Below, piece by piece: positions 1 through 13,317 of a DNA stretch of 26,841 bases. The DNA comes from a virus (Duplodnaviria; Heunggongvirae; Uroviricota; Caudoviricetes). The stretch spans positions 1-26,841 of IMG/VR virus record IMGVR_UViG_2802429248_000008; one strand, written 5' to 3'. Each line of letters opens with the position of its first letter. Within the stretch, counting starts at the first letter, position 1. Under the pieces are notes generated by a model, which saw only the letters and a program-made list of their open reading frames with translations, did no database searches and was not told where the DNA came from. Made by a program: the position numbers and the translations under genes.

Positions 1-57
1 GATATCCGTTCAGCTTCAGAATAATGCTGTTGATTTTACGGTGACTCAGCGGGAGTG

Positions 58-83
58 AAAAGAAAAAAGGCCGCAGAGCGGCC
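58..83 (-). terminator. Rho-independent terminator-like hairpin closing the int-proximal cargo operon
   Basis: Perfect 6-bp GC stem ggccgc/gcggcc with 3-nt loop at 69-83; on the minus strand it is followed by a TTTTTTCTTTT run (plus-strand A-run 58-68). Lies about 110 bp past the stop of the 193-663 gene. Confidence 0.5.
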
Positions 84-192
84 ATAATTACATTCAAAAA
101 TCAATAAGTTACACAATTATCAATAGCTTACAGACACACAAAAACACAGCCAACCACAGCAAGTAACAGGGATGTGGTCACTTTGTGGATCA

Positions 193-663
193 TCAGCCAA
201 CAAATTTAGCAACAAAATACGCGACCGCCGCCGTGAAAATGGTTGTGCACACTGGCACAATAATGCCACTCCAACGCCACTTCGTATTATCATCAACCTT
301 GTCAAACCGCCGATTCATCTCATCCATAATCTTGTCAAAGCGTTTATCCATCGCTTCGGTAAGCTCACCCTTCAGGCTGTTAATGTCTGATTTGAGCTGC
401 TCTTTCAGGTTAGCTGTATCAGATTTAAGCTCACCTTTCAGATTCGCAATATCGCATTTAAGCTCACCTTTCAGATTCGCAATATCGCATTCAAGATCAC
501 CTTTCAGATGTGCTATGTCTGCTTTGAGTTCACCTTTCACCTCACCAACATCGGCTTTAGTTGAGAGGTTTGTAGTGCGTTCAGCAAGTGTCGCAAGGTC
601 GTTTCTTGTTAGCGATAAATCACCTTCGAGCCGCTCAATTCGCCTTTCAAGTTTATCTGACAT
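193..663 (-). CDS. Coiled-coil protein with tandem 11-residue repeats and a C-terminal hydrophobic anchor
   Basis: ORF track 193..756 (minus). ATG at 663-661 (MSDKLERR...) follows GGAGG on the minus strand; the track's GTG at 756 gives a longer alternative. Repeats of the form DIANLKGELK; C-terminus IIVPVCTTIFTAAVAYFVAKFVG looks like a single TM helix. Confidence 0.55.
   Translation of the reverse strand: MSDKLERRIERLEGDLSLTRNDLATLAERTTNLSTKADVGEVKGELKADIAHLKGDLECDIANLKGELKCDIANLKGELKSDTANLKEQLKSDINSLKGELTEAMDKRFDKIMDEMNRRFDKVDDNTKWRWSGIIVPVCTTIFTAAVAYFVAKFVG
358..555. repeat. Six tandem 33-bp units inside the 193-663 CDS; units at 424-456 and 457-489 are identical
   Basis: Direct reading: tttaagctcacctttcagattcgcaatatcgca occurs twice back to back, flanked by four diverged 33-bp copies. 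In frame, encoding the 11-aa repeats. Confidence 0.85.
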
Positions 664-756
664 TCCGCCTCCATTATCACCGCCTCCCTCACCGAAAGAG
701 TTGCCAATGTCCTCACGAATAAGGGTTATGCCATGCTCACTTTTAGCATACGCCAC

Positions 757-1155
757 TCAGATTCCCTCCCAAACTATATATCCTTTGTCTCTTGCCCAAC
801 AAACAACTGTGTGGGCTGTATATGTGGATGTGAAGCCGCAATAAGAACATGACACTTCATACCGAGTATTGTAGATGTTAATGGGCTCGTTCTCCTTGTG
901 TATGGGAGTGACATATTCCCAATCATTCGAATCATCATAATCATCAAGCTCAGGGTCTGTGCCGTGAACAACCGTATGTGGAATAAACAAATCTGGGCGC
1001 CCACACGAGAGACAAGAGGTTCTGGCATCTCTATCTTTGAGGAATTGAATAAATAATTTGGGCGAAATCTGTTGCAGAACCTGCAAATGCCCACGTTCAT
1101 TATCATTAAGAGACCTGTCTGCATATGGAAAATCATCAAATTTAAGAGGCTTCAT
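757..1155 (-). CDS. Hypothetical zinc-ribbon-like protein, AT-rich cargo gene
   Basis: ORF track 757..1170 (minus). Preferred ATG at 1155-1153 (MKPLKF...) with GGAG about 9 nt upstream; overlaps the integrase stop by about 14 nt. Two CxxC pairs (CLSCG, CSYCG). Stop TGA is directly followed by the GTG of the next ORF. Confidence 0.5.
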   Translation of the reverse strand: MKPLKFDDFPYADRSLNDNERGHLQVLQQISPKLFIQFLKDRDARTSCLSCGRPDLFIPHTVVHGTDPELDDYDDSNDWEYVTPIHKENEPINIYNTRYEVSCSYCGFTSTYTAHTVVCWARDKGYIVWEGI

Positions 1156-2134
1156 ATAAGGCATCTCCAAGGGGATTAAATCTCACCGCATCCTGCAAGT
1201 AATCCGGCGCAAGATGGGCATAAATCATCGTTGTCTGAATCTTTGCGTGCCCCAGAATTTTCTGGAGCGTCAGAATATTGCCGCCGTTCATCATGAAATG
1301 ACTGGCGAAGGTGTGGCGCAGCGCATGAACAGCCTGGCCGTCGGGAACATCAGATGCGACCGTTTTGATGACATCGCGAACCAATGGATAATCCAGCGTC
1401 GGAAACACCAGTTTCCCGCCCCGTATTTTGATCTTTTCAAACAGGCTTTCAGAAATAGGAACGGTACGGTTTTTGCTGTTCTTCGTTTTTGAAAAAGTGA
1501 TTCGACAATGAAGAACACGGCGCTGCTCCAGTGCCGCTACCTCGCCCCATCGCGCCCCGGTCGACAGAAGGATTTCGACAGCCAGCCGTTCATCGGGATT
1601 TTCAGCCAGTGCATCCAGCAACTGAACACATTCAGACTTACTCAGATATCCCATTTCGCGCTCGTTAACCTTCATTCCTTTAAGGCCTTGAACGGGGTTA
1701 TCGTTAAGAAAATGGCCGGATGAGATGAGTGCGGTAAACATCGCGCTTAACGCCCCAATCTCTCGATTTATGGTGCTGGGCTGTATCCCCTGCTCTATCC
1801 TGGACACACGTAGCTCGGTGAGCATCGTTGTATTAAGTTTATGCACGCACGGGTCATCCATTGCCTCACTCAAGCGCAGCAATTTAAGGCGCGTGTTATG
1901 CCCTGACTTCATTAGCTGGCCGTGGTATTTCCACCACAAGTCAATAAGCACTGACAGCGGACGGCGATCAATGGAGTTTCCTTTCCACTCATTGTTATGC
2001 TGTTGCGCCAGCACCCACCGCTCATATAAAACTGCATCCGATTTCGTTTTAAATTTTTTACGAATGCGTTTGCCTTTACGCCCCTCCGGGCGCATGTCAA
2101 GAAGATACCCTCCCGGAATTGATTTTATGCTCAT
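1142..2134 (-). CDS. int: Tyrosine site-specific integrase, P2 Int family
   Basis: ORF track 1142..2284; start set at ATG 2134-2132 (MSIKSIPGGYLLDMRPEGRKGKRIRKKF...), which resembles the P2 Int N-terminus as recalled. C-terminal catalytic box HALRHTFASHF ... IQTTMIYAHL. Sits downstream of and co-directional with the repressor. Confidence 0.9.
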   Translation of the reverse strand: MSIKSIPGGYLLDMRPEGRKGKRIRKKFKTKSDAVLYERWVLAQQHNNEWKGNSIDRRPLSVLIDLWWKYHGQLMKSGHNTRLKLLRLSEAMDDPCVHKLNTTMLTELRVSRIEQGIQPSTINREIGALSAMFTALISSGHFLNDNPVQGLKGMKVNEREMGYLSKSECVQLLDALAENPDERLAVEILLSTGARWGEVAALEQRRVLHCRITFSKTKNSKNRTVPISESLFEKIKIRGGKLVFPTLDYPLVRDVIKTVASDVPDGQAVHALRHTFASHFMMNGGNILTLQKILGHAKIQTTMIYAHLAPDYLQDAVRFNPLGDALYEAS

Positions 2135-2183
2135 TCGTGAAACCCCAGCGTTACAAGACCACCATGCCCCCAGCGCTCCATGA

Positions 2184-2492
2184 TTAGCCGGGCTGTGTGC
2201 CAGTCTTGCGGGGTTTTTGAGAAGGCGATGTGCTTTTTGGCCCATCAGGGGAGAGAGACGGACTGATCTGCCCAGCAGCCTCATTTGTTTTTCCCGTCAT
2301 AAGCCAATTCATGTACTTAAAAAAGCGAGGGTGATTAACAATCTTGATAAGCACTTCGCCCCCTATGTTTTCAATCCGCCCCGTTTCATAACGACGCAAA
2401 GTGCCGATAGGCACATCAATCAGGCCGCAAAATTCTTCGCGCGTTAAATCCTCTGATTCACGAATCACTCTAATTTTTTCACCGATAAGCAT
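2184..2492 (-). CDS. C: Immunity repressor, XRE/Cro-C1-type HTH (P2 C-like)
   Basis: ORF track 2184..2528; ATG at 2492-2490 (MLIGEKIRVIRESEDLTREEFCGLIDVPIGTLRRYETG). HTH near the N-terminus, about 100 aa, divergent from a cox-like gene and just upstream of int, as in P2. Confidence 0.75.
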   Translation of the reverse strand: MLIGEKIRVIRESEDLTREEFCGLIDVPIGTLRRYETGRIENIGGEVLIKIVNHPRFFKYMNWLMTGKTNEAAGQISPSLSPDGPKSTSPSQKPRKTGTQPG

Positions 2493-3230: not shown

Positions 3231-3509
3231 ATGACCAAAGAGCATGCACAAGGTGTATTTATCCGTTTTATTGATTTTCGCGGTGAACTGTTATTACGCG
3301 CATCAGCCATTGACGGAGTTGTTCCATCCGAAAAAAACGCAGCTACTTACGTTTATCTGAACGGTACGCGCCTGACTGTGGAGCTTCCGTACCAGACCGT
3401 ACGAGAAATCATTAGCGAAGCTGAAAAGGCACGTCAGGTTAATGGCGATGAACCATATATCGAAATTATTTGTATGGATTCAGAAGCTGAAATCCAGAAG
3501 GCAGATTAA
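3231..3509 (+). CDS. Hypothetical early protein
   Basis: ATG 3231 preceded by AGGTG, in frame with track ORF 3171..3509; 92 aa. Confidence 0.5.
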   Translation: MTKEHAQGVFIRFIDFRGELLLRASAIDGVVPSEKNAATYVYLNGTRLTVELPYQTVREIISEAEKARQVNGDEPYIEIICMDSEAEIQKAD

Positions 3510-3519
3510 AGGGTGTGCG

Positions 3520-3762
3520 ATGGACAAAGAATATAAAGCTCTTGTCAATAAAGCACTTGAGCGTTTTTATTTTCGCCTAAACACATCAGGGGCCCAGGCA
3601 GAACACGCAGCCCATGATTCATTAGCAAGGGCAATCAGAAGCCTTTATGACGTGGCTTTTTACGCTGACGATTTGGATGCAATTAACGAACTTTCCGAAC
3701 TCATCTGTGCTGCAGAATGCGGAGAACACATTGAACCGTATAAACTGGGGAATATCGTATGA
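3520..3762 (+). CDS. Hypothetical early protein
   Basis: ATG 3520 preceded by GGGTG, in frame with track ORF 3442..3762; 80 aa. Confidence 0.5.
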   Translation: MDKEYKALVNKALERFYFRLNTSGAQAEHAAHDSLARAIRSLYDVAFYADDLDAINELSELICAAECGEHIEPYKLGNIV

Positions 3763-3896
3763 GCATATTTATGTCATGGCTTGTTCTGATTATTTCGGTG
3801 TTCTGCGCTATTGGCATTATGCGAATTATTCATTCAGTGAAAAAGATTGAGCGTTTTTCTCTGACGAATAACAGCACAAATAAAACACCAGATTAA
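3759..3896 (+). CDS. Small hydrophobic protein (45 aa, one predicted TM helix)
   Basis: Below the ORF-track size cutoff. ATG 3759 overlaps the upstream stop (ATGA). Translation MSIFMSWLVLIISVFCAIGIMRIIHSVKK... with stop TAA at 3894-3896. Confidence 0.3.
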   Translation: MSIFMSWLVLIISVFCAIGIMRIIHSVKKIERFSLTNNSTNKTPD

Positions 3897-3964
3897 ATAA
3901 GAAAACGTGAAAACCATCCGAATTAGCGGAGGCATTCACACACGTAAACAACGGAGATACAAAA

Positions 3965-6972: not shown

Positions 6973-7086
6973 GTAATCATCATGCACACACAAAAAAACC
7001 GCTTGCCATGCCGCAATCAGTCAGGTTACATTTCCGCTGCACCTCATAAAACGGGTGCCGGGATTCTCAACCTGCTGACAAACGAA

Positions 7087-7118
7087 GCGCACAACCGCGC
7101 CAGCGGTTTTTTTGTGCG
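7087..7118 (+). terminator. Terminator-like hairpin with a 7-T run
   Basis: Inner stem ccgc/gcgg (7095-7106) followed by TTTTTTT (7107-7113); outer arms cgcacaa/ttgtgcg (7088-7094 and 7112-7118). About 115 bp past the 6412-6972 gene. Confidence 0.45.
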
Positions 7119-7168
7119 TACTGTATTGCCACGTCTTTTTCGCATCAGAATTATGGTGGGGCGTACGG

Positions 7169-7200
7169 GGCCGACTTCGGTCGGGCCGGTTTCTTCGTTT
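7169..7200 (+). terminator. Second terminator-like hairpin with UUCG loop and U-rich tail
   Basis: ggccgac-ttcg-gtcgggcc at 7169-7187, then ggtttcttcgttt. Preceded by TTGCCA (7126-7131), a 17-nt spacer and AATTAT (7149-7154), a plausible promoter. Confidence 0.45.
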
Positions 7201-7295
7201 GCCGGTGTTGAGAACCCCGTACGTCTCGCCACCCCGAGATTCTCAACTCTGGTTGGTGAGTATCCAAAAACTCACAAACGAAGAGGCCAAACACC

Positions 7296-10869: not shown

Positions 10870-11829
10870 ATGAAAATTTGTATCGACGACGGCTCCACCA
10901 ACATCAAGCTGGCATGGACTGAGAACAGCGAACGCCGCAACGCCATCAGCCCGAACAGCTTCAAGTCGGAATGGTCTGCGCCGTTCGGTGGCTCGCAGCC
11001 TGCGAACTACATGCTTGATGGCGTGCGCTATGGTTTTGATCCGGTCAGCGATCGCTTTGTCCAGACGACCGACACGCAATACCAGTACAGCGATGTGAAT
11101 GTAATCGCCATTCACCACGCGCTGGTCAAATCAGGCATCACACCACAGGAGGTGGATGTGGTTGTCACCCTGCCACTGAGCGAGTATTTCGACACAAACG
11201 CACAGCCGGACATGGCCAACATCAACCGCAAAAAAGCGAACGTTATGCGCCCGGTGGAGTACCAGAACGGTGAGGCATTCACTATCCGTAACGTGCGGGT
11301 TATGCCTGAATCCATTCCGGCTGGCTTTAAAGCACTGGCTGACATGAGTCCGTTTGAATCCCTGCTGATTGTGGATTTAGGCGGAACCACGCTGGATGTG
11401 GCAAAGGTTCAGGGACAACTGGCAGGTATCAGCCAGGTGTTTTGCGATCCACACGTAGGCGTTTCCCTGATGGCCGATGCCGTACTGTCGGTGATGGCCA
11501 CTAACGGTATGCGTACCAGTCACCACATCGCCAATACCATTATCGAACATCGCCATGATGAAGCCTGGCTGCGCCAGCACATCCACAATGACGCGCATTA
11601 CAACAGCCTGATGGCGGTTATTCGTGAAAAGGAAGAAACACTGAAACAACGCGTGATCCGCGCGCTGGCGGGTTTTTCGGGTTACGGGCGGGTGATGGTT
11701 GTCGGTGGAGGGGCGGAGATTGTGGCACCCGCTATCCGCGAAGCCTGCGGAGTTAATGCGACTTTCATCGCGGACGGGGTGCCACAGTTTGCTCTGGTTA
11801 ATGGGCTGTACGCAATGGACAAGGAGTAA
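10870..11829 (+). CDS. parM: ParM/StbA-family actin-like partition ATPase
   Basis: 319 aa. N-terminal MKICIDDGSTNIKLAW, plus HHAL, NRKKAN, VMPESIPAG, LLIVDLGGTTLD, VGGGAEI and LVNGLY, co-linear with plasmid R1 ParM as I recall it. Confidence 0.88.
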   Translation: MKICIDDGSTNIKLAWTENSERRNAISPNSFKSEWSAPFGGSQPANYMLDGVRYGFDPVSDRFVQTTDTQYQYSDVNVIAIHHALVKSGITPQEVDVVVTLPLSEYFDTNAQPDMANINRKKANVMRPVEYQNGEAFTIRNVRVMPESIPAGFKALADMSPFESLLIVDLGGTTLDVAKVQGQLAGISQVFCDPHVGVSLMADAVLSVMATNGMRTSHHIANTIIEHRHDEAWLRQHIHNDAHYNSLMAVIREKEETLKQRVIRALAGFSGYGRVMVVGGGAEIVAPAIREACGVNATFIADGVPQFALVNGLYAMDKE

Positions 11830-11833
11830 ACCA

Positions 11834-12145
11834 ATGACGACACCAACCAGACGGATAAGTTTCTATCTGAAGCCCGCCGCCGTCAAGAACGAAGGCGAAG
11901 CATGCGCCTGGCTGGACAGCCTTACACCAGAAGCCCGCAAAAGCGGCCAACGCGTGGCTTTTCTGGCCGGGCTGGCACTTCTGAAAATGAATCCGGCAGA
12001 GGCTTACCGACTGGCTGCATGGGCTGACGATGAGGCGTTATCGGTGACACAAACCAGGACAGAACGCCCCGTGTCACAGCCAGTACCAACCGCACAGATA
12101 ACCAGTCAGATGGCAGGGAATATCCGGGCATTATTTCCTGAATGA
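11834..12145 (+). CDS. parR: ParR-like centromere-binding adaptor
   Basis: 103 aa, AAGGAG RBS, starts 4 nt after the parM stop. RRISFYLKP...DSLTPEARKSGQRVAFLAGLALLKMNP parallels the R1 ParR N-terminal region (RTIAFKLNP...DSIPQGERSRLNRAALTAGLALY) from memory. Confidence 0.7.
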   Translation: MTTPTRRISFYLKPAAVKNEGEACAWLDSLTPEARKSGQRVAFLAGLALLKMNPAEAYRLAAWADDEALSVTQTRTERPVSQPVPTAQITSQMAGNIRALFPE

Positions 12146-12205
12146 CGAATTTGACGGCTTTTAATTTTATCGGGGTGCACTGTCGCCCCGCACGAGGAAA
12201 ACACG

Positions 12206-12730
12206 ATGAAAAAATACGAATACATGCTAATGAAAGAAGCACTGCGGGCTGGTCTGGCTCCCTGTCCTGTATCCGTAGAAGCTGTTGTTGGGAACACGAT
12301 TTTCCGAACGCTGCGAAATCGCGTATCCGTGAAGATGATTCACCAACCACCCAAATCTACCAGCATGATCTATCTGCCGCTGCCCGAGGCTATCAAACTT
12401 ATGCGTTCGCTGAAATTTGCGATTTGGATGCAGACACAGCTCAACAAAGCGGTGCAAAACACCTTCGTTAAGAAACTGATGCCGGAGCTTGCTGCCAGAT
12501 GTGCAAAATGTACCAGACCAGCACTTCAATTTGATCTGTCATTGATTCAACAAGCTACGGAGGCAGAACTGTACCGCCTGTCACCTCTCCATGATGCTCA
12601 CACGGAAGCCTCAGAAATGTTCCGGCTCATGTTTCAATTTAATTTTGCCGTTCGACGCACACGCGTTCAGGTCAATCGCATGATGCAGGCGCAGGAAGAG
12701 CTGACGCAACACAAAGGAGGCAACCAGTGA
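12206..12730 (+). CDS. Hypothetical protein (174 aa), hotspot cargo
   Basis: ATG 12206 with GAGGAAAA RBS; stop overlaps the next gene's GTG start (GTGA). No recognisable motif. Confidence 0.5.
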   Translation: MKKYEYMLMKEALRAGLAPCPVSVEAVVGNTIFRTLRNRVSVKMIHQPPKSTSMIYLPLPEAIKLMRSLKFAIWMQTQLNKAVQNTFVKKLMPELAARCAKCTRPALQFDLSLIQQATEAELYRLSPLHDAHTEASEMFRLMFQFNFAVRRTRVQVNRMMQAQEELTQHKGGNQ

Positions 12731-13317
12731 GCAAGATTGACTATCAGGCATTACGCGAACGTTATTCACCTGCGCCAGTACCGAAATGCCCTATTTGCGG
12801 CGAGGAAATGTCAATTCAGCGAATATCTGGAGCACAGGTTGTTTATGCCTGCTCCGGTTATGGTGATGATGGAGATTTCAAAATTGGTCGAACTCTTGCC
12901 GACGAACATTATGAAAAATCACGCGTAACAGTGTTGGATGTCGGGGATCCTGAAGTATTGGCGCTACTTGATTGGCTGGAAACTAAAGACAACCGAATCG
13001 CTGAACTGGAAAAAATCGCCACTGACTATGCACTTAAATTCCAGAAAGCACAGGACGCATTAAAGTATGCCGCTTTGCTGCATAGCCGGACGGCGCAACA
13101 AACCAATAATTTTGCAGTATCGCTTCCGGACATAAGCGAATATTTCATTAATGACGTATTTCAGCCCTTGCGATACGAGCGGGATGTTGAAAGAGCCATC
13201 ATAAAGGCTGGCGGAAAAGCATTGTGGCAGGAGAAACACGAGGACAGAACGCATCAGTCCTGCGATGTAAATTGTGGATGGTTTAGCCCACTGACGACAG
13301 ATAAAAATAACACCTGA
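12727..13317 (+). CDS. Hypothetical protein with N-terminal zinc-ribbon-like motif and central coiled-coil (196 aa)
   Basis: GTG 12727 with AAGGAGG 9 nt upstream. CPICGEEM...YACSGYG cysteine cluster; coiled-coil segment LALLDWLETKDNRIAELEKIATDYALKFQKAQDALKYAALL; N-terminal IDYQALRE is reminiscent of Ead/Ea22-like prophage proteins (weak recollection). Confidence 0.5.
   Translation: MSKIDYQALRERYSPAPVPKCPICGEEMSIQRISGAQVVYACSGYGDDGDFKIGRTLADEHYEKSRVTVLDVGDPEVLALLDWLETKDNRIAELEKIATDYALKFQKAQDALKYAALLHSRTAQQTNNFAVSLPDISEYFINDVFQPLRYERDVERAIIKAGGKALWQEKHEDRTHQSCDVNCGWFSPLTTDKNNT

Follow-up and report, generated by a model that had tools for sequence, protein, structure and literature searches.

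What can a prophage do with a gene built on a tandem array of 33-bp repeats, close to the very end of its genome? The question is raised by a stretch of 26,841 nucleotides, positions 1 to 26,841 of IMG/VR virus record IMGVR_UViG_2802429248_000008, hereafter the window. This stretch is a prophage of the P2 family; its closest phage is Escherichia phage P88 (Xuanwuvirus), at 96% identity from position 2918 onward. The repeats are found further to the left, on the minus strand, in a small gene of the DUF1640/CCDC90-like type. The best explanation, to which we give a probability of about three in four, is that the array codes for the coiled-coil stalk of a protein, small and tail-anchored in the inner membrane, which this P88-like prophage carries as cargo.

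In its codon register, the array occupies positions 361-558 of the minus strand and consists of six in-frame tandem units, each specifying 11 residues: KADVGEVKGEL (unit 1, 526-558), KADIAHLKGDL (unit 2, 493-525), ECDIANLKGEL (unit 3, 460-492), KCDIANLKGEL (unit 4, 427-459), KSDTANLKEQL (unit 5, 394-426) and KSDINSLKGEL (unit 6, 361-393). A preliminary description, made from the sequence alone, had placed six such in-frame repeats at 358-555, which is the same array offset by 3 nt, and the DIANLKGELK-like peptide that it reported is indeed the minus-strand translation of the window. Tandem Repeats Finder detects an array of period 33 at 402-539 (4.2 copies with 83% matches; score 162), and a repeat finder gives five overlapping 66-nt copies over 360-557, spaced by exactly 33 nt and hence amounting to six units. 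When the sequence is compared with itself at a lag of 33 nt, the longest run of identity is 36 nt, which delimits a perfect tandem block at 423-491 (69 bp, that is two units plus 3 nt), while in 20 shuffled windows the maximal lag-33 runs reached only 6-10 nt. The 33-bp repeat is real and far above chance. The two copies singled out earlier as identical, 424-456 and 457-489, are located inside the perfect block, and the four copies that flank them are diverged as had been stated, with 19-25 of 33 nt alike in pairwise comparison. Two further diverged units, of a second kind and absent from the preliminary description (295-360, minus strand; TEAMDKRFDKI and MDEMNRRFDKV, 23 of 33 nt alike), extend the helix of 11-residue units, or hendecads. 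The duplicated unit (427-492, minus strand) contains a cysteine, so that C90 and C101, separated by 11 residues, share a face of the helix; of 49 distinct units, 8 have cysteine at their position 2.

Which strand is read is not a trivial matter here. An open reading frame (ORF) of the plus strand (185-844, 219 aa) is fully open across the gene in the window, and it might be argued that this ORF is the gene, or else that the array serves as a DNA or RNA element without coding for protein. Substitution patterns are of no help in separating the strands, since the two frames have their third codon positions in common; a codon-position substitution test was abandoned, and the conservation of stop codons was used in its place. 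The minus-strand ORF has no internal stop in any of 10 homologous loci, whereas the plus-strand ORF is interrupted by 1-3 stops in five of them. Family matches, a transmembrane (TM) helix and a ribosome-binding site are found only for the minus-strand product, and no Rfam match was found within the array. A true frame on the other strand, the case that would have spoken against the preliminary description, can be laid to rest for all practical purposes, and a non-coding element with it. The antisense ORF is nonetheless a trap for gene callers as well as for codon-position tests. In the annotation of APSE-1, gene P47 (DUF1640; 3390-3962 of locus L017) overlaps an antisense 'putative tail fibre protein' named P48, which is probably the same antisense-ORF artefact.

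The gene, in the form given by the ORF list, extends over 193..756 on the minus strand, from a GTG start at 754-756, with GGGAGGG 7 nt upstream, to a stop codon at 193-195, and it codes for 187 residues. An alternative start is the ATG at 661-663, with GGAGG upstream, yielding a short form of 156 aa (M32, MSDKLERR...). This ATG is the start in many homologue records derived from NCBI, in which lengths of 112, 123, 134, 145 or 156 aa begin there. However unsettled the choice, we favour the long form because the extension upstream of M32 is in frame and open in all nine loci examined, and because a G-[IVL]-T-[LP]-[IL] motif persists, along with a Gly-rich linker, in extensions of type A that are otherwise heavily diverged.

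What sort of protein does this make? An AlphaFold2 (AF2) monomer model, built with 35 homologues, has a mean pLDDT of 71, rising above 90 in the repeats. Residues 1-31, comprising a variable peptide and the Gly linker, are disordered in the model; they are followed by a helix of 32 residues (32-63), a break at S64-T65-K66, and a continuous helix of 86 residues (67-152) that houses all eight hendecads. After a short break beyond residue 152 comes a hydrophobic C-terminal helix, 156-186. The break after the first helix coincides with the sequence L63-S-T-K-A-D68 (codons 553..570, minus strand), which matches the beta-layer motif [aliphatic]-A-T-K-[polar]-[DE], S standing for its A and A filling the 'polar' position; in the 35-homologue alignment T66 and K67 do not vary. 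According to Hartmann et al. 2016 (PMC4786415), it is with this motif that the stalk begins in DUF1640 membrane proteins. The C-terminal TM helix itself (about G164-F185, codons 202..267, minus strand), preceded immediately by a conserved K-W-R-W, aligns with the C-terminal TM end of the Pfam family PF07798, and W160, P168 and V169 are invariant in the family alignment. The membrane anchor previously proposed for the end of the protein is consistent with both the AF2 model and this alignment. In some alleles the TM helix displays a four-residue insertion (IAIF).

The periodicity of the stalk is clear-cut. Hydrophobicity has a period of 3.65-3.68 residues (3.68 over residues 67-154), close to 11/3 (3.67), with almost no power at the heptad value of 3.5. 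A peak as high as the one observed came up in no more than 3 of 1000 shuffles; the 11-residue periodicity noticed at the outset is well founded. From 49 distinct units in homologues the consensus reads K-[SAC]-D-[IVTL]-A-x-[LV]-K-G-E-[LFI], with hydrophobic residues at unit positions 4, 7 and 11. This 3-4-4 spacing is the core pattern of a hendecad, and in established coiled-coil geometry a hendecad corresponds to three helical turns. Each 33-bp unit encodes one hendecad, the core being formed by its positions 4, 7 and 11, and the stalk would begin directly after L-S-T-K-A-D, as it does in the DUF1640/CCDC90-like family.

That family, PF07798, includes human MCUR1 and CCDC90B, yeast Put6 and Put7, and the prokaryotic protein of PDB entry 6H9L. 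RefSeq names the homologues of the window protein 'DUF1640 domain-containing' or 'CCDC90 family' proteins. The PF07798 profile, at its positions 41-170, matches residues 63-179 of the window protein, reaching from the beta-layer as far as the TM helix, with an E-value of 2.2e-6. Among 35 close relatives, 28 are matched at E<0.01, the best of them at 6e-8. Aligned by hhalign, the profile of the enterobacterial proteins and that of canonical, head-bearing DUF1640 proteins are related with 99.7% probability (E 8e-26), and the canonical profile in turn hits chain A of 6h9l (6h9l_A) at E 2.7e-11, an entry with three chains and ATKEDIEALRK 11-mers. The likeness extends to architecture, with a stalk that begins with a beta-layer motif (A/S-T-K-x-D), continues as a coiled coil and is followed by a single C-terminal TM helix. 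The prokaryotic members encountered here contain hendecads of the ELKxDIAxLxG type, and they too differ from each other by whole 11-residue units (P0063/P0053, P0062/P0056, P0067/P0059). By contrast, the window protein has, in place of the head, a variable peptide of about 30 residues, a Gly-rich linker and a 32-residue helix, and its gene is borne by a prophage and coupled to a partner gene specifying a four-cysteine (Cys4) protein.

The preliminary description had left two readings of the 11-mers side by side, an amphipathic helix or a coiled coil. The former is the main alternative to the stalk: the 11-mers would form an amphipathic 11/3 helix lying on the surface of a membrane or of lipid, in the manner of apolipoproteins, alpha-synuclein, perilipins or LEA proteins, and the protein would be a lipid- or membrane-remodelling factor. 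By E-value, the best Pfam hit of the window protein is in fact the Apolipoprotein A1/A4/E family (PF01442, 6.7e-7), which 25 of 35 relatives hit as well; its score is 29.6 bits against a gathering threshold of 90. The canonical DUF1640 profile likewise hits apolipoprotein A-IV and A-I chains, at E-values from 3.5e-5 to 9e-3. To be sure, a straight 11/3 hydrophobic stripe suits binding to a flat surface as well as it suits a coiled coil, but with just three hydrophobic positions in 11 the stripe is narrow, as is typical for the core of a coiled coil, and the proline punctuation of apolipoproteins is absent, no proline being found in residues 32-155. The array moreover opens with a beta-layer motif, such as trimeric coiled coils have, and the nearest solved relative, 6h9l, has three chains. 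Homology to DUF1640 together with the beta-layer motif makes the coiled-coil stalk the better supported of the two readings, and we hold a lipid-binding helix to be unlikely.

The coiled-coil stalk, which we prefer, would most likely be a parallel trimer, nearly straight. The model of the window protein being that of a monomer, support for this prediction is indirect: the related 6h9l entry has three chains, and beta-layers are known as a feature of trimeric coiled coils (PMC4786415). The stalk would project into the cytoplasm from the single C-terminal TM helix. A cytoplasmic N-terminal part would be expected, since the protein lacks a signal peptide, since its N-terminal domain of 150 residues is charged, and since the yeast members of the DUF1640 family are oriented towards the mitochondrial matrix (PMC7519068), to which the cytoplasm would correspond for the window protein.

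The beta-layer proteins proper (Tcar0761, OMP100; PMC4786415) provide another point of comparison. They share the A-T-K-x-D class of motif, tandem repeats of short period and a trimeric fibre, and the best PDB profile hits of the family, themselves non-significant, are beta-layer constructs (7o92, 5apz, 5apt and 7oah). In those proteins, however, the motif recurs every nine residues and breaks the helix each time, whereas in the window only the first unit has S-T-K; later units lack the two extra residues and are predicted to form one continuous helix. A Foldseek search of the AF2 model against the PDB gave no hits, as expected for a single long helix.

If the array codes for a stalk, how constant is the length of that stalk? 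A search of 5.8 billion proteins yielded 72 clusters, the members of which added 64 sequences; a scan of contigs with the protein returned one locus only, in Salmonella enterica s1, and for that reason the copy-number statistics were drawn from the protein clusters together with E. coli RefSeq genomes. Units were counted between two fixed anchors, T-K-A-D... on one side and ...EAMDKRFDK on the other. These are always 22, 33, 44, 55, 66 or 77 aa apart in the KADIA-type lineage, that is 2, 3, 4, 5, 6 or 7 whole units. Spacing by whole units was found in every lineage checked, over more than 100 enterobacterial homologues, and in the multiple alignment the gaps within the stalk measure only 11, 22 or 33 residues. 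The preliminary description had anticipated that the number of repeats would vary, and far from being invariant it differs by whole units from one homologue to the next. Lineages differ in which unit expanded. As cases in point, KADIAHLKGEL is present three times in E. coli P0023/P0025 and SADLAQVKGGL four times in P0026/P0121, while a Salmonella series carries STDLAQVKGGL once, twice and three times (P0033, P0038, P0124); a Klebsiella lineage shows the same whole-unit steps. Units of the second kind also vary as wholes, with gaps or insertions of 11 aa among homologues (P0017, P0023, P0031): the unit MDKRFDKI / MNRRFDKV, present twice in the window, is present once in some homologues and three times in P0031. 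Even distant metagenomic DUF1640 proteins differ pairwise in length by 11 or 22 residues.

Within this series, the allele of the window has close neighbours. The five-unit proteins of Shigella sonnei (P0075/P0080) have exactly the array of the window minus the duplicated unit, and E. coli alleles differ from it by a single clean 33-bp gap in DNA that is otherwise about 97% identical. The array of Salmonella enterica strain s1 is identical to that of the window. The perfect block at 423-491 is a recent duplication that gave the window allele six units instead of five; in other words, the six-unit allele arose from the common five-unit allele by duplication of one unit. More generally, replication slippage or unequal recombination between tandem, partly identical copies would add or remove whole units. 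Each such event would change the length of the stalk by about 1.6 nm (11 x 0.15 nm) while leaving its register, and its azimuth relative to the anchor, unchanged. Only whole-unit alleles are expected, because a unit-length mutation mechanism and selection for an intact core would both yield them.

Identical tandem units are substrates for slippage, and several lineages have independent expansions of identical units. It might be thought, then, that the gene is a fast contingency locus, the repeat number of which switches often within a strain and so varies a surface or interaction property. Yet 35 of 39 complete E. coli genomes carrying the gene, from many serotypes, share one span, 33 bp shorter than that of the window, and the most abundant protein clusters, those with hundreds of contigs, all have five units. 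Besides, two identical units make a short substrate in the window, and a unit length that is a multiple of three does not permit on/off switching. A contingency locus is therefore very improbable. Five units are the usual state, and change in length is an occasional event rather than hypervariability.

A related kind of repeat protein is met in Borrelia. When plasmids were searched by tblastn, 20 of 23 records were Borrelia genes for 'Bdr family repetitive protein', with E-values down to 3e-8, and blastp against three fetched Bdr sequences gave E 8e-16, a value that holds for that tiny set only. The alignments span the repeats and the K-W...TM end, in keeping with the central 11-residue repeats and C-terminal hydrophobic anchor of Bdr proteins, and Bdr too has runs of identical 11-residue units (e.g. 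DLKSDIMSVKS three times). Bdr proteins associate with the inner membrane and are borne by prophages or plasmids, and no function is known for them (PMC10016077, PMC2525819). The bdr genes are carried on prophage-type replicons, the cp32 prophage plasmids and linear plasmids, and on cp33 of B. turcica (L014, 18-3390) the order integrase, small ORF, bdr, portal echoes the order seen here, that of integrase, partner gene (orfX, described below) and DUF1640-like gene. The B. turcica Bdr passes the PF07798 threshold. In other respects the two systems differ: Bdr is defined in NCBIfam by an N-terminal domain, NF040499 (Bdr_N_group1), on which two Bdr proteins score 80-88 bits and which has no hit in the window protein at E<=1; host phylum and type of phage are not the same; and Borrelia genomes harbour large families of paralogues, as against one copy per prophage here.

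The gene does not travel alone. Upstream of it, in the direction of transcription, is orfX (757..1155, minus strand), which overlaps the 3' end of the integrase gene and codes for a 132-aa protein with four cysteines (CxxC...CxxC; phrog_4293), without annotated relatives and without a fold match. Two distantly related subtypes exist, of 132 and about 166 aa, and orfX was found upstream of the DUF1640-like gene in all seven loci examined (the window, L004, L007, L010, L011, L012 and L018); in L002, the match to window positions 3-2290 is continuous across it. Since its stop codon abuts or overlaps the long-form start in every subtype, coupled translation of the two genes is suggested. At 754-759 of the minus strand the TGA of orfX is followed at once by the GTG, in the same frame, and this is also the case in L002, L007 and L018; such an in-frame stop-start junction fits coupling by termination and reinitiation. 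A fusion of orfX to the DUF1640-like protein by readthrough was set aside as unlikely, the genes being out of frame in L010 and in type-2 loci.

The pair also bears the mark of recombination. In L001 and L004, which have the other orfX subtype, alignment with the window runs up to 684 and breaks off there, indicating a mosaic breakpoint at about 684-685, inside the codons of the Gly-rich linker and some 21 nt upstream of the ATG at 661-663; their alignment resumes from 1165 upward, with 99% identity in the integrase. As the alignment breaks at 684 and resumes at 1165, orfX and the N-terminal peptide have been swapped as one cassette. The subtype of the N-terminal peptide always matches that of orfX, which may reflect physical linkage only.

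On the minus strand the order is that of a helix-turn-helix (HTH) repressor (2184-2528, upstream of the integrase), a P2-family tyrosine integrase (1142..2284, Pfam Int_N and Phage_integrase), orfX, the DUF1640-like gene and a terminator-like hairpin. The integrase ORF as listed is probably longer than the true gene, with a start further down, homologues having 312-325 aa. Next to btuC the same module is present in E. coli, Salmonella and Citrobacter, and next to dadX in Klebsiella; an episomal P2-like element of Klebsiella carries it as well, followed by late genes. Found at two attachment (att) sites and in an episomal element, the module travels with the phage. At the btuC site, the prophage of E. 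coli SK1144 has an unrelated gene in its place. At the left end of the window, no phage match among those listed begins before about 2903, and there is no close match in the phage collection. The 94 nt downstream of the gene (100-193, or 3001-3094 of L003) find a match, at about 93%, in 302 of 5426 E. coli genomes, among them some with prophages that are without the gene, and they are probably the conserved phage end next to att. The cargo has a GC content of 42-45%, lower than the 49-53% of the integrase.

This location bears on another possibility, that the protein is a lysis accessory of the XhlA or holin-partner type, with an N-terminal coiled coil and a C-terminal TM helix, aiding the action of holin or endolysin. 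There are weak matches to a PHROG holin family (phrog_689) and to a haemolysin family (phrog_1193), Pfam XhlA (PF10779) matches 2 of 35 relatives at about 1e-3, and the Bdr of B. turcica reaches 32.5 bits on XhlA, against a cutoff of 34.7. But XhlA gives no hit at E<=1 with the window protein itself, whose gene is on the repressor-integrase strand beside att and not among the late genes of a P2-type genome, and its constant partner is a Cys4 protein of cytoplasmic appearance, not a holin or an endolysin. We consider a function in lysis improbable.

Returning to the anchored stalk, in P2 the genes C and int are transcribed from one promoter. The protein would be made together with orfX from the repressor-integrase strand, probably in the lysogen, and it is expression of the module in the lysogen that we infer from this arrangement. 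Its most plausible role, at best a guess, would be that of a membrane-anchored spacer or scaffold acting with orfX in an interaction between phages or between phage and host, possibly in an accessory module of phage exclusion or defence. The interval between integrase and att in P2-like phages is a minor defence hotspot, with 3% of P2 systems (PMC13586616, NAR 2026). The gene pair described here, placed between integrase and att, resembles the cargo and defence spots of P2-like phages (Rousset 2022, PMC9122126; PMC13586616); it differs from them in that neither protein matches a PADLOC model beyond coiled-coil noise. With PADLOC-DB 2.0 the DUF1640-like protein gave only low-scoring coiled-coil matches, to segments of LeoBC, ZorA and LmuB, and orfX none.

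Several points weigh against this whole construction. The score of the window protein on PF07798, 28.1 bits, is below the gathering threshold of 33.5; the N-terminal head of the family is missing, profile positions 1-40 being unmatched; and direct searches of the PDB, by phmmer or by profile and with the window protein or its family, were non-significant (E 0.035-0.9). Because of this last result, the link to 6H9L is drawn through canonical DUF1640 proteins. Furthermore, the similarity to DUF1640, 6H9L and Bdr lies largely in the repeats, so that inflated scores or convergence are possible. We view the window protein as a headless relative within one DUF1640/Bdr superfamily, not as a member by the Pfam cutoff. 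As for the transcript, the hairpin (69..83, minus strand, GGCCGC-TCT-GCGGCC and then a T-run), about 110 nt downstream of the gene, resembles an intrinsic terminator by consensus match only, such sites being no commoner in the region than in shuffled sequence, and terminator and operon structure are consensus-level inferences. Finally, the role in defence is a guess from genomic position alone, PADLOC having found nothing beyond coiled-coil noise.

The prophage has a second cargo hotspot, between gpA and the portal gene (10870-13317, plus strand), where a partition pair of the ParM/StbB type (ParM, 10870-11829; Plasmid_stab_B, within 11699-12145) is accompanied by an Ead/Ea22-like gene (12727-13317). 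PADLOC found nothing specific among the cargo genes between gpA and gpQ. In the early region, Rfam identifies on the plus strand the Hfq-binding RNA isrK (7039-7113, 62 bits) and, adjacent to it, a C4 antisense RNA (7149-7236, 79 bits), both above the gathering score.

What, then, is the interest of this locus? Much of it is ordinary: the family is annotated, and polymorphism of such repeats is predictable; hendecad stalks, beta-layers and repeat variation in Bdr are already known. What may be new is the series of whole-unit alleles in enterobacterial prophages, and also the headless architecture coupled to a Cys4 partner in the cargo spot between integrase and att, as well as a direct sequence link to Borrelia bdr. 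A literature search on hendecad repeat number and stalk length found nothing. A much bolder proposition, which we regard as unlikely, would be that orfX and the headless DUF1640-like protein form a hitherto undescribed two-gene exclusion or defence module expressed in the lysogen, in which the distance spanned by the stalk is tuned in 1.6-nm steps by gain or loss of hendecads, the same principle explaining the variation of Bdr repeats. Be that as it may, nature has provided a clean allelic series, from two to seven units, differing only in whole hendecads. The DUF1640/CCDC90/Bdr family spans phages, bacteria and mitochondria, and this series is found in hosts as tractable as E. coli and Salmonella. 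As a result, whether the length of the stalk matters, and what the family does, become directly testable, while the sequence link may place the genes of enterobacterial P2-like prophages and the bdr genes of Borrelia in one prophage-borne lineage.

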